This document shows, one piece after another, positions 16,843-39,376 of a stretch of 39,376 nucleotides of DNA. The DNA comes from a candidate division WOR-3 bacterium. GTDB lineage: Bacteria; Hydrothermota; Tepidihabitantia; Tepidihabitantales; DTDR01. Made by a program: the position numbers and the translations under genes. Position 1 is the first letter of the stretch. Each line of letters begins with the position of its first letter. Under the pieces are notes generated by a model, which searched no databases, was not told the origin of the DNA, and saw nothing but the letters and a program-made list of their open reading frames with translations. The DNA is taken from positions 1-39,376 of the forward strand of contig JBDRVN010000010.1 in the NCBI GenBank assembly GCA_039801885.1, given 5' to 3'.

Positions 16843-18411
16843 TTAAATTACAATTTTTTCTGCTTCTCTCATTACTTCTTCTACAGTGGTAATTCCCATA
16901 AGAACTTTCTTTATACCATCTTCCCAAAGGGTATCCATACCACTTTCTTTTGCCAACATCCTTACAGCACTGGTTGGTGGTCTAGTAACAATTAACTCTC
17001 TCATTTTTTCATCAACTTTCATAACTTCAAATAAGCCAATTCTTCCATAATAACCAGTATAACGACAGTGTTCACAACCCTTGCCGCGATACAAAATAGT
17101 ATCTTTAGGTAATTCTAATTCTTCTAAGACCTTTGGTGAAGGTTTATACTCTTCTTTACATTTTGGACAAATTCTTCTTACTAATCTTTGTGCTAAAACT
17201 CCTTCTGTTGCCGAAGCCACTAAGAAAGGCTCAATTCCCATATCAATCAAACGGTTGATTGTTCCCGGTGCGTCATTAGTGTGGATTGTTGAAAAGACTA
17301 ATTGACCGGTTAAGGAAGCACGGATAGCCACCGTTGCGGTATCTCGGTCACGAATCTCCCCGATAAAAATAACATCCGGGTCTTGACGCAAAATATGCCG
17401 TAATCCGACAAGATAGGTATAGCCAGCTCGTTCATTAACTTGAGATTGACAAAGTCCATCAATATCATATTCTACCGGGTCCTCAATAGTAATAATATTT
17501 TTTTCGGCACCGCGGATTTCTTGTAAAATTGCGTAAAGGGTGGTTGTCTTTCCTGAACCGGTTGGTCCAGTTACTAAGATAACGCCGTGAGGTTTTCTAA
17601 TCATCTCTCGCAAAACTTGTAACCTTTCCGGTAAAAGTCCTAATTCATCCATAGATAAAAGCCTTACCCGGTCTAAAATACGCATTACTACTTTTTCACC
17701 ATAAGTGGTGGGGAAGGTAGAAACACGGAAGTCAATTTCCCGACCGTCAACAATTGCGGCATAACGACCATCCTGGGGCAATCGTTTTTCAGCGATATTC
17801 ATTCTTGACATAATTTTAATACGGGAGACAACAGCTAATTGTAAGGCTTTCTTCGGAGCAACAACCGGATGTAAGACGCCATCAATTCTAAATCTTACCT
17901 GTAAACCTTCTCTTGTTGGTTCAATATGAATATCTGATGCTCTTTCTCTTACTGCTCTAATAATCAATTGGTTTACCCATCTTACCACCGGTGCTTCAGA
18001 AGCTAATTCTTCAAGTTTTTTAGGAGTTAAATCAAGTTCGGCTGCTACTTCTCCTTCACCTAAAGGTTCAATAGTTTCCACTTCCGGTTCGTCAGGAATA
18101 TCCGGTGGCTGGGTTTGAGCATAATATTCATTTAATATTTGATAGAGGTCTAATTCCTTACAAACCATTACTTGTAAATCCATTCCGGAAAATCTACGGA
18201 TTTCATCAATAGAATAAATATTCGATGGGTCAACCATTGCTACTACCAAGGCATTTCCGGATTTAAAAAGAGGAACAAATTTATGGGCTCTCAAAAATTC
18301 TTCCGGAAACATTTTCATTACTTCAACATCAATTTTAAATGCGGTTAAATCAACAAACGGCACACCATATTTCTGTTCTAACTCAAAACCAATGTTATCT
18401 TCTTGAGCCAT
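16843..18411 (-). CDS. pilB: GspE/PilB family assembly ATPase
   Basis: ASDIHIEP, GPTGSGKTTT, TIEDPVE, LRQDPDVIFIGEIRD, HTNDA, CPKC...CEHC Zn motif. Confidence 0.9.
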   Translation of the reverse strand: MAQEDNIGFELEQKYGVPFVDLTAFKIDVEVMKMFPEEFLRAHKFVPLFKSGNALVVAMVDPSNIYSIDEIRRFSGMDLQVMVCKELDLYQILNEYYAQTQPPDIPDEPEVETIEPLGEGEVAAELDLTPKKLEELASEAPVVRWVNQLIIRAVRERASDIHIEPTREGLQVRFRIDGVLHPVVAPKKALQLAVVSRIKIMSRMNIAEKRLPQDGRYAAIVDGREIDFRVSTFPTTYGEKVVMRILDRVRLLSMDELGLLPERLQVLREMIRKPHGVILVTGPTGSGKTTTLYAILQEIRGAEKNIITIEDPVEYDIDGLCQSQVNERAGYTYLVGLRHILRQDPDVIFIGEIRDRDTATVAIRASLTGQLVFSTIHTNDAPGTINRLIDMGIEPFLVASATEGVLAQRLVRRICPKCKEEYKPSPKVLEELELPKDTILYRGKGCEHCRYTGYYGRIGLFEVMKVDEKMRELIVTRPPTSAVRMLAKESGMDTLWEDGIKKVLMGITTVEEVMREAEKIVI

Positions 18412-18451
18412 AAATTCACCCCCTTACCAATAATACATTTACTTCTATAAA

Positions 18452-19869: not shown

Positions 19870-19895
19870 ATTATAGAAGCAAGCAGGAGGTGAAA

Positions 19896-20114
19896 ATGCG
19901 AGGGTTGATTGAAAAGGCTTTATTTTTGAAACCTTCCCAAACAAAAAAATTTTTTACGCGAATAAATGATGATAAAGAATTTCTTTTTTATCTTTTTCTT
20001 TCTCCCAAAGGCGTATGGGAATTGCTCTGTTATAAAACTACTGGTGAAAGAATTTGGCGGGCAGCAAATTTAAAAAAGGAGGATCTTTTTGAACTTATTG
20101 GTGAATTTTTTTAA
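19896..20114 (+). CDS. Hypothetical 72-aa protein (MRGLIEKALF...)
   Basis: Own promoter and strong SD AGGAGGTG before ATG 19896; no family recognised. Confidence 0.7.
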   Translation: MRGLIEKALFLKPSQTKKFFTRINDDKEFLFYLFLSPKGVWELLCYKTTGERIWRAANLKKEDLFELIGEFF

Positions 20115-38269: not shown

Positions 38270-38460
38270 AAAAATGTGTCACATTTTTGGTAACTTATTG
38301 AAATTATATAACTTAAATAAATATTATTTATTTAAAATTTTGTCTTGTCGCACTTTTGTAAGGGAATTTATTTTTAGATAACAATTAAAGTTTTAATAAA
38401 ATCATCAAAAATCAATGTTTTTTTAATTTTTTATTTCTCTTTTTGGCATACTTTTTGATT
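38270..38460 (+). promoter_or_regulatory. Putative sigma54-type promoter with upstream activator-like sites
   Basis: TGGCAT-ACTTT-TTGAT at 38444-38459 (GG-N10-GA; the -12 C is replaced by A). Palindrome AAAAATGTG-T-CACATTTTT at 38270-38288. Direct repeats TGTCACATTTTTGGTAA and TGTCGCACTTTTGTAA. IHF-like TAACTTATTGAAA at 38291-38303. Confidence 0.45.
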
Positions 38461-38469
38461 TATATTATA

Positions 38470-38848
38470 CAAATAAAAAGGTTCTTTGAAAAGTAGGTAA
38501 ATAAAAAGAATAAGATTGCTCGCATTTTCACCTCCTTACCACATTGTTTGGGATGTAGTGCGAATTTTTCGAAGGGAGGATAAGAGAATAAGAATTATGA
38601 GTTCGGGTTCACATGGCTAGCGCTACATCCCAAATAAGATTCGGGGGTCTAAAATTAGCCTCCCTTTTGAGTTCATAGCCCAGTCCTCATTTTTAGGCCC
38701 CCGTTAACTTTGAGGGGGAGGAGGAGATGAAAAAAAAGGGCGCTGGTATTACTGAGTGAAACCGTTCAAAAAAATAGAGGATGCCACCTCTTAATAATAT
38801 TTTAGAGGCGAGACGAACGGACCCAGGGTACCAGTAGCCCTTTTTTTT
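38470..38848 (+). ncRNA. Candidate structured non-coding RNA or long leader (unknown family)
   Basis: GC-richer than its flanks. boxA-like GTTCTTTGAAAA at 38481-38492. Stems 38544-38561/38620-38637, 38642-38654/38691-38703 and 38730-38767/38815-38848. G-U wobbles favour the + strand. Ends in a U-tract. Ends are approximate. Confidence 0.6.
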
Positions 38849-38889
38849 AGTTTTTTTTAAGATGGATAATGAATAAAAGGAGGGGTGGG

Positions 38890-39376
38890 GTGAAGAAATT
38901 TTCCCTTTTATTAATTTTGTTCTTCGCTTGTTTAGAAAAACCAAAATTACCAGAATGGGATACAGAAATAACAATTCCCTTATTTAAAAAAAATTTTACA
39001 ATCTTTTCTTTTTTAGATTCTCATTACTTTATTTTTAATTCTGATTCAACCTTTAATTTTTTTTATCAAAGTAGTTTTGATACGATTTTTCCGATAACAA
39101 AAATTAATTTTAACATCGATAGATTTAATAGTAATTATTATTTTAATAATTTTGAAATTTGTGATACTTTTTATACTGAAATAATTATTAATATTGAGGA
39201 GATTTTAGGGGTTATGATTTCTGATAGTTTTATTATTTTACCACCAATAAATCTACAAAAAGAATTACAAAAAGTAATTATTATAAACAATTTTCATCGA
39301 GGTATTATTGAAAAATGTTTTTTGACTTTAGACATCGAAAATCATTCACCAATAAATTTTAGATGTTTTGGAATCA
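38890..39376 (+). CDS. Putative lipoprotein (3'-truncated; absent from the ORF track)
   Basis: GTG start after AAGGAGG; MKKFSLLLILFFA-C lipobox-like signal, then LEKPKLPEWDTEITIPL...; frame open to the end of the window. Confidence 0.75.
   Translation, partial: MKKFSLLLILFFACLEKPKLPEWDTEITIPLFKKNFTIFSFLDSHYFIFNSDSTFNFFYQSSFDTIFPITKINFNIDRFNSNYYFNNFEICDTFYTEIIINIEEILGVMISDSFIILPPINLQKELQKVIIINNFHRGIIEKCFLTLDIENHSPINFRCFGI

Follow-up and report, generated by a model that had tools for sequence, protein, structure and literature searches.

The 39,376-nucleotide (nt) stretch analysed here, hereafter the window (positions 1 to 39,376 of the forward strand of contig JBDRVN010000010.1, assembly GCA_039801885.1, from a candidate division WOR-3 bacterium), contains at ~38470-38848 on the + strand a conserved structured non-coding RNA of ~375 nt, which a first-pass annotation made from the sequence letters had listed as a candidate. 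This RNA belongs to a family new to Rfam 15 that we consider real: large, covarying, present in single copy and accompanied by a fixed partner gene encoding a lipoprotein. Within the genus of this organism, two segments of the RNA, here called seed A (the segment flagged by the first-pass annotation) and seed B, are complementary to the start regions or 5' ends of other mRNAs. Antisense control in trans by the RNA in this genus is plausible, though unproven, and we see the case for it and the case against it as evenly balanced. Genomes are denoted G000 (that of the window) and G001-G005 (five sister species of the same genus); f1-f5 are families, the genus belonging to f1, and C10, C19 and the like are contigs.

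A structured RNA upstream of a lipoprotein gene

The RNA occupies an island of raised G+C content (38440-38850; 41-47% against 14-25% in the surroundings) within a 670-nt spacer, with the divergent rimP-nusA-infB operon on one side and the + strand lipoprotein gene on the other. It was conserved at full length in all five sister genomes of the genus, with 77-92% identity. When its folding was compared with that of shuffled sequences, the + strand gave z = -4.1 and the minus strand z = -3.2, and RNAalifold applied to the six genus copies predicted 92 pairs and found compensatory changes at 11 of these. Several U-G pairs of the consensus fold would be C.A on the opposite strand and fit the + strand alone. 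A scan of the window with the 4227 models of Rfam 15 gave no match at the gathering threshold and chance-level matches only at E up to 10; six sister loci, including the larger versions of the RNA, gave no match at E up to 0.1, and ARAGORN found no tRNA or tmRNA gene in the window. A full-text literature search, judged from titles and abstract openings, returned nothing on this RNA. A small + strand open reading frame (ORF) from an internal ATG (38727) varies in frame and length among species, and the locus was treated as non-coding.

From 5' to 3' the RNA is composed of a box beginning GGTTCTTTGAAAAG, the flagged segment, hairpins P1 and P2, a purine-rich strand, a long 3' hairpin and a run of eight T (T8) (Table 1). 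As the first-pass annotation had placed it, the flagged segment immediately precedes the first hairpin, P1, in which 38547-38562 pairs with 38621-38634. It is the best-conserved block of the + strand structured RNA: all 23 nt were invariant in five of the six genus copies, and the sixth, that of G004, has one extra T. Its anti-Shine-Dalgarno (anti-SD) core was retained in f3 and f4, and the 3' domain could be detected by BLAST in f3. Within that domain, three short elements that are all invariant in the genus (AGAGG, CCTCT and AGAGG; 38776-38810) permit two mutually exclusive small hairpins, an arrangement that could serve as a switch.

Upstream of the RNA, TTTGGCATAnTTTTTGA is invariant in the genus alignment and includes a sigma-54-type element. 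The sigma-54 -24/-12 consensus is TGGCAC-N5-TTGCW, and the elements found at the corresponding place in the sister families (TGGCACGGTAAATGC, TGGCATAAGATATGC or TGGCAC-N5-[AT]TGC) fit it, so that a sigma-54-type element is conserved over four families and may act as a promoter there. The genome G000 contains rpoN. A TGTCGCAC-like motif recurs ~90 nt upstream of the putative promoter in f1, f2, f3 and f4, and motifs of the TGTCGCA-/GACGCAC- type were seen at a similar upstream distance in G007, G043, G036 and G012.

The lipoprotein gene encodes 640-700 amino acids (aa) and was present in 35 of the 66 genomes of the order; it has no Pfam family, and Protein Atlas gives it as hypothetical only. 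Because the gene is cut at 39376 and resumes on another contig (G000:C26:3-1163, query residues 108-494), C10 and C26 are probably adjacent. In the sister families the RNA is ~560-850 nt long with extra domains and always ends 10-100 nt before this gene. The P2 motif was located upstream of the lipoprotein gene at 14 of 14 f2 loci and at the one f3 locus, the single f4 locus carried the 3'-loop motif only, and neither motif occurred at any of the seven f5 loci. A covariance model of P2 identified one copy per genome in 26 of the 132 genomes of the class, all of them from f1, f2 or f3. The RNA is a single-copy element found in at least three families of one order. A T-run was absent from the f2 sequences read, and a terminator-like 3' domain was found in f1 only; since those f2 sequences have no T-run, the RNA is the 5' leader of the lipoprotein gene in the wider family, and the stand-alone small RNA (sRNA) proposed by the first-pass annotation does not hold there. 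These results indicate that the RNA of the genus is a shrunken member of an uncatalogued family of 5'-leader RNAs of 600-850 nt. One 459-nt contig of a relative, from a sediment RNA library, covers 38523-38545 and 38635-38844 and then runs 151 nt into the next gene. The contig, which carries no strand or end information, is compatible with co-transcription of RNA and gene; that it stops at 38523 points only faintly, if at all, to a transcript start there. Another RNA run gave no coverage of the locus, a result that carries no weight.

Some further features of the gene and its leader were recorded. The start region of the lipoprotein gene is conserved over families (AGGAG[G/T]TG.G.GTGAA, GTG start; window 38876-38895, alignment A3 columns 985-1003), which is unusual at such divergence. 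The gene occurs again, as a more distant second copy, in two genomes (G007:C62:3574-5031 and G032:C110:3215-4666). The longer RNAs of f3 and f2 carry an extra 5' module (G007 L078, ~1370-1470; G028 and G036, L112/L113) with an SD-like/anti-SD-like helix, formed by AAGGGGGUGCC and GGCACCUCCUU in f3 and by GAAGGGAGUGCC and GGCACUCCCUUC in f2, and a GGTTCTTT box is duplicated in f3.

Complementarity of two RNA segments to gene start regions

The first-pass annotation had drawn attention to two sites complementary to seed A, and both were recovered. CTCGCATTTTCACCTCCT (38519-38536, + strand) is the exact 18-nt reverse complement of 19885-19902, which spans the SD, the ATG and 4 further nt of a 72-aa orphan ORF, and TTCACCTCCTTACCA (38527-38541) matches the start region of pilB (18415-18429) with one mismatch, which on the minus strand reads as a G facing a seed U and leaves 14 Watson-Crick pairs and one G-U pair. 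With up to two mismatches allowed, CTCGCATTTTCACCTCCT had only two matches in the window, where 100 shuffles gave an expectation of 0. The pilB site is 4 nt upstream of the start codon (ATG 18411-18409), and a T2SSF gene adjoins pilB; the orphan ORF is conserved in the five sister species (74-96% identity) and has no Pfam family. The seed core had also been equated with the 3' end of bacterial 16S rRNA over 11 bases. The 16S rRNA of this genome ends in ...GGATCACCTCCTTT, and seed A therefore has TCACCTCCTT in common with the organism's own anti-SD tail, that is, 10 of the 11 bases. We rejected a 16S fragment or pseudogene, since nothing beyond this core is common with the organism's own 16S and no small-subunit rRNA match was found in the window.

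Genome-wide (1.56 Mb), the matches proved more than generic: GGAGGTGA occurred only 30 times and GGAGGTGAAAATG four times including the RNA locus, with CGAG following in two of the other three; TGGTAAGG.GGTGA occurred twice, at the RNA locus and at pilB. A second exact complement of the 18-mer was located at C19:25151-25168, extending to 22 nt with one G-U pair, in the start region of a 1457-aa SBBP/Por_Secre_tail protein. To rank gene starts we used our own crude ORF calls (1286 start regions) and RNAduplex with 38515-38545. The two sites named by the first-pass annotation came out ahead of nearly all other start regions, the orphan at rank 2 and pilB at rank 6; the six best scores were -33.9 (C41), -33.6 (orphan), -32.5 (C34), -30.0 (C60), -29.3 (C15) and -28.8 (pilB), against a mean of -10.0 with a standard deviation of 5.2, and C19 scored -38.0 once its start had been corrected. 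A crude count, bearing on the first-pass suggestion that leaderless housekeeping mRNAs would be spared, placed a 5-mer SD at 291 of 1285 first-ATG starts, and scores of the seed and of the 16S tail were correlated at 0.67. The large targets are alike in function, being Por_Secre_tail, CARDB and SBBP surface proteins; that on C41 is a CARDB/Kelch protein with a tail of the type IX secretion system (T9SS) type below cut-off. The specificity that had been assigned to the seed flanks was borne out, as none of 100 flank-shuffled seeds keeping CACCTCCT equalled the real seed, which had a top-five mean of -33.6 (flank shuffles, -25.0) and seven sites at -28 or better (flank shuffles, at most 3). After the cost of opening both partners, the net energies remained favourable, at about -16.5 for the orphan, about -14.6 for pilB and about -17 for C19.

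Comparison across the genus gave several changes in keeping with pairing. The pilB site remains TGGTAAGGAGGTGAA-like: G001 and G002 match perfectly over 15-16 nt, G003-G005 have 1-2 changes, and the changes at the orphan site in G001, G002 and G005 are A to G facing U only. The seed of G004 has T5 where the others have T4, and the orphan and C41-type start regions of G004 both have A5. At 38518 the pair between seed and C41-type site is G-C in G003, G-U in G000 and G005 and A-U in G002, where the C41-type match reaches 24 nt. As a separate observation, each of the four sister genomes G002-G005 encodes, besides pilB, another T2SSE ATPase that is its paralogue at 49-51% identity (L085-L088).

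Seed B, in the P2 loop, is predicted to be accessible, with an opening cost of 1.8-2.6 kcal/mol. It is complementary at 22 of 22 positions to C11:8636-8657, which comprises the SD, the ATG and 6 nt of a GH123-like gene, at 16 of 16 positions to a KaiC-like gene on C5, and over 12-15 nt to the leaders of the C19 gene and of two C22 genes. RNAduplex scores were -43.9 for C11 and -36.5 for C5, the next best being -29.8, and the net energies after opening both partners were about -33.7 and about -25. At the 5' ends of the C19 leader and of both C22 leaders, TTGACx-N17-TATAAT promoters are followed, after 9-14 nt, by TGAGGACTGGGC, the complement of the 12-nt core. The five sister genomes contained 17 exact TGAGGACTGGGC sites, of which five were the RNA itself; all the other 12 were at gene 5' ends in sense orientation, and a reversed control pattern gave none. 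Both a seed A and a seed B site are present in the C19-type mRNA in G000 and G005.

Table 1 Features of the RNA locus and of the candidate target sites in the window
Feature	Position	Strand	Remarks
pilB start region, candidate seed A target	18415..18429	-	CDS (coding sequence) 16843-18411, T2SSE + MshEN domains
Orphan start region, candidate seed A target	19885..19902	+	72-aa CDS 19896-20114
Candidate enhancer (activator) site TGTCGCACTTT	38346..38356	+	~90 nt upstream of the -24/-12 element; putative role
Sigma-54-type promoter TGGCATACTTTTTGA (GG-N10-GA), predicted	38444..38458	+	Block invariant in 6/6 genus copies
Conserved box GGTTCTTTGAAAAGTAGGTAAA	38480..38501	+	Kept in f1, f2, f3, f4; 3' part predicted to pair with 38515-38530
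Seed A (flagged segment)	38519..38541	+	Anti-SD core; flanks are the complement of spacer + start codon + 4 nt
Hairpin P1, apical part variable	38547..38634	+	Three compensatory pairs in G002; much larger domains replace P1 in sister families
Hairpin P2, invariant 35-nt loop	38642..38703	+	Stem varies U-G/U-A and C-G/U-G
Seed B, open P2-loop segment	38668..38689	+	Antisense to mRNA 5' ends (TGAGGACTGGGC...)
Purine-rich SD-like strand GAGGGGGAGGAGGAGATGAAAA	38712..38733	+	Internal partner of seed A; same place as 3' strand of the covarying f2 helix
3' domain: long irregular hairpin, invariant loop GGATGCCACCTC (38779-38790), T8 (38841-38848)	38738..38848	+	Many compensatory pairs
Conserved lipoprotein gene, 5' part	38890..39376	+	GTG at 38890; SD AAAGGAGG 38876-38883; runs off contig, continues on G000:C26

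Antisense pairing weighed against other readings

In the mechanism that we propose for the genus, the conserved block would have been extended into a full anti-start-region, with the anti-SD followed by the complement of the A-rich spacer, of the AUG and of the next codon. The RNA would be released at the T8 terminator, or kept as part of the leader, and would then pair with its target mRNAs. Seed B could make the first contact through its open loop, and because the C11 site is itself a hairpin, a loop-loop start appears likely; seed A would pair once its helix opens. Occlusion of the SD and start codon by either seed would block initiation. The candidate seed A set comprises MRVI-type T9SS cargo proteins (C19, C41), a small MRVI protein (C60), the C34 protein, the 72-aa orphan and pilB, and the candidate seed B set the extreme 5' ends or start regions of the C11, C5, C19 and C22 mRNAs. 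In its widest form the proposal is tentative, and we think it unlikely to hold as a whole: a single genus with small genomes would have co-opted an ancient, order-wide, sigma-54-driven leader RNA for master antisense control of its cell surface, and the two anti-start-region elements of this RNA, one auto-inhibited by an internal start-region mimic and the other loop-exposed, would shut off T9SS cargo, the KaiC-like ATPase, the 72-aa orphan and the type IV pilus ATPase, the mRNAs having evolved 12-24 nt of complementarity to pre-existing RNA sequences.

We know of no RNA regulators described for this uncultured lineage. If pairing in trans is true, it would constitute the first post-transcriptional regulon in an uncultured lineage having T9SS-sorted (Por_Secre_tail) proteins, and pili and secreted surface proteins would be tied to sigma-54 signalling. 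It would also mean that antisense seeds can arise from parts that a large leader RNA already has, here a structural helix strand and a conserved loop, and that mRNAs can evolve toward such pre-existing RNA. Whatever the outcome for pairing in trans, an RNA family whose promoter type is clear and whose partner gene is fixed offers a concrete target for studies of structure and function.

A number of results weigh against antisense pairing. Seed A is predicted not to be free: it is paired in both the minimum-free-energy and the consensus folds, and opening it would cost 9-11 kcal/mol. Among the genus comparisons, there is an A.G mismatch at 38518 in G004, the C41 site of G000 has A5 facing the T4 seed, and CGAG has been lost from the orphan genes of G003 and G004; start regions are, besides, conserved for reasons of their own. 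The shuffle result is partly generic, because the 5' flank of the seed complements an A-rich spacer plus AUG, an idealised start region; the MRVI target genes are paralogue-like, and their matches are therefore not independent; and CGA is not enriched at codon 2 (13 of 131, against 10.6% overall). In f3, the seed 18-mer, searched exactly or with up to three mismatches, matched only the RNA itself and one further sequence with three mismatches, and the 12-mer with one mismatch was not commoner than its reversed control, with none of 26 matches at a convincing gene start. In five f2 genomes, the P2 loop gave self matches only, and two-mismatch matches were not commoner than in the reversed control. 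The f2 homologue of the 3' half of the seed, yCCUUGCCGCAUCGC, is conserved but not anti-SD, and the sequence of seed B is largely ancestral in the RNA family; invariance of these parts therefore has a family-wide cause unrelated to the targets. Expression of the + strand over the seed is predicted from sequence and fold, and the sole RNA-library contig, by continuing into the neighbouring gene, suits a leader as well as a small RNA. Of the original idea of a trans-acting sRNA that blocks selected ribosome-binding sites, the RNA, the start-region matches and their retention across the genus stand; set against them are the paired seed, the leader role in the wider family and the lack of targets in f2 and f3.

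The flagged segment is predicted, in the modelled folds, to be double-stranded within the RNA and to close the P1-P2 domain. On the 5' side of the seed, 38515-38530 would pair with 38487-38500, in a consensus helix that varies UG/CG and UG/UA; on the anti-SD side, CCUCCUUACC (38531-38540) would pair with GGGGGAGGAGG (38712-38722), or in an alternative register UUUUCACCUCCU with AGGAGAUGAAAA. The counterpart in f3 is formed by AGGAGGUGAU and AUCACCUCCU, and the pair two bases upstream of the CACC core differs in a compensatory way, U-A in f1 against A-U in f3. In f2, a helix likewise joins the stretch after the box to the stretch after P2, with different sequences (GGUCUGCCGGGC / GCCCGGCAGACC and variants); over 10 sequences, 122 of 141 cells were paired and at least five positions showed two-sided changes. 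This helix is the positional counterpart of that of the seed, slightly upstream and not anti-SD in sequence. As it covaries with a sequence that is not anti-SD, the closing helix is a feature of the family, and the SD:anti-SD-like sequence is derived in f1, f3 and f4.

These folds favour, in first place among the alternatives, a role that is purely intramolecular or in cis, which we regard as possible, if on balance doubtful. Seed A would then be a helix strand only, or a cis anti-SD toggling between the internal SD-like strand and the lipoprotein SD AAAGGAGG, and the matches in trans would be a by-product of a near-ideal start-region complement. Such a role would fit the internal pairing predicted for each of the six genus copies as well as for f3 and f4, the compensated f2 helix at the equivalent place, the failure to find trans targets in f2 and f3, and the RNA-library contig that crosses into the gene. 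It would fit equally the position of the RNA, which abuts the gene with no space for a separate promoter and in f2 has no T-run, the gene-RNA synteny across families, and a downstream SD complementary over 9 nt (AAGGAGGTG) in five of the six genus copies. What it leaves unexplained are matches of 18-24 nt that continue beyond the start codon although the coding sequences there are unrelated, the insertion in G004 that gives T5 in the seed and A5 in targets, the 12 sense-oriented seed B sites, all at mRNA 5' ends, and an invariant seed strand set against a varying, mismatched internal partner; nor was a third complementary copy for the f2 helix seen by eye near the gene start.

Events at the DNA level are an improbable source of the matches. 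The 18-24-nt stretches would be short inverted duplications, tracts of gene conversion or sites of recombination common to the RNA locus and the 5' ends of several genes, and RNA pairing would play no part, as exact 18-22-nt identities at several loci might suggest; moreover, the start regions of the orphan and C19 genes have 20 nt in common, 2 nt of them non-complementary to the seed, and the minus strand of the RNA locus has both motifs in the same order as the C19 leader. However, homologous exchange tracts are usually longer than these stretches, the changes between species tolerate G-U pairs as expected of RNA pairing, and within the RNA family seed B is an ancestral sequence; by eye, the RNA and the C19 leader appear unrelated in their middle parts, and no rearrangement was found among the six syntenic genomes. 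Site-specific inversion at the common 22-mer was put aside, since recombinants would presumably part genes from their promoters.

It is very improbable that the RNA serves as a mimic of the 16S 3' tail, in which case its internal SD:anti-SD-like helix would not pair with mRNAs but would act as a decoy, bound by a protein or ribosomal site specific for the 16S 3' end or the SD duplex. In f1 and f3 the core agrees over 10-11 nt with the 16S tail of the same organism, in f1, f3 and f4 it is paired with an SD-like strand, a second such helix is found in the 5' module of f3 and f2, and the neighbouring genes are rimP-nusA-infB. Yet the main closing helix of f2 is not SD-like, likeness to 16S ends with the core, with no match to an Rfam small-subunit model, and the flank on the start-codon side and seed B are left unexplained. 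A published study (PMC7797042) provides background on how the anti-SD is sequestered in the ribosomes of Bacteroidetes.

Least credible of all is a functional minus strand, on which AAGGAGGTGAAAATG, a strong SD with ATG, precedes a 21-codon open frame (38533 to 38468) for a hydrophobic peptide, for example of a type I toxin-like gene; this ORF, below the 50-aa listing limit, was rejected, as the conserved block is in different frames in G000 and G001 (alignment A1), the ATG is ACG in G011, no promoter-like sequence was seen by eye upstream on that strand, and the G-U pairs and the promoter/terminator arrangement favour the + strand.

Resemblance to known RNAs and features of the target leaders

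If it acts in trans, the RNA would by analogy work like RNAIII-type or CU-rich-seed sRNAs, from which it differs in size, promoter type, leader role and buried seed. RNAIII of Staphylococcus aureus is likewise a large regulatory RNA with many hairpins; through C/U-rich stretches it pairs with several mRNAs for surface proteins at their SD and start regions, and its loop-loop contact with an extended duplex is the mode to be expected for seed B and the C11 hairpin. In contrast to RNAIII, to which it has no sequence or Rfam relation, the WOR-3 RNA follows a sigma-54-type promoter, has one seed buried in a long-range helix and is a leader in its wider family, and its function is a prediction. The CU-rich-seed RNAs RsaE/RoxS and LhrC also carry several conserved C/U-rich motifs complementary to SDs, and surface proteins are among their predicted targets; whereas those RNAs are ~100 nt long with seeds in unpaired loops, members of the WOR-3 family measure 375-850 nt and show complementarity of 18-24 nt that takes in spacer and start codon.

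Cis anti-SD leaders, such as riboswitch or thermosensor platforms, resemble the RNA in having an anti-SD strand, an internal SD-like competitor and the true SD downstream on one transcript, with conserved gene synteny, but the WOR-3 RNA contains no known aptamer, its anti-SD is ~350 nt from the SD, and f2 members have no anti-SD here. In size, in its many covarying conserved helices, and in its single copy, narrow taxonomic range and fixed gene neighbour, the RNA is similar to OLE, GOLLD, ROOL, HEARO and raiA, models of which we take to be among the 4227 scanned; neither the window nor the six sister loci matched any of these. A -24/-12 type promoter before a regulatory RNA is a trait of the sigma-54-dependent sRNAs Qrr and GlmY/GlmZ, which are unrelated in sequence and structure to the much larger WOR-3 RNA, whose promoter use is predicted from the DNA.

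The large T9SS-type surface-protein genes have common ~100-nt 5' leaders (C19:25157-25270, L146; C22:8107-8224, L148; C22:1000-1111, L153; C41:9544-9650, L147), and the same leaders are present in G002, G003, G004 and G005. They contain a hairpin loop GGGG(G)TGG followed downstream by (T)CACCC, which resembles a cis SD-like/anti-SD-like switch. A mini-ORF of three codons, ATG CCC AAA TAA, comes after the 5' motif in the two C22 leaders (C22:8190-8210 and 1077-1097), within a GGGC/GCCC hairpin; the C19 leader has no mini-ORF. A third class of genes carries TGAGGACTGGGC in its first codons (M..EDWAQ...), around position 1501 of L035 (G004:C86), L030 (G003:C13) and L031 (G002:C18); in G000, whose completeness is 91%, the class was not seen as an exact copy.

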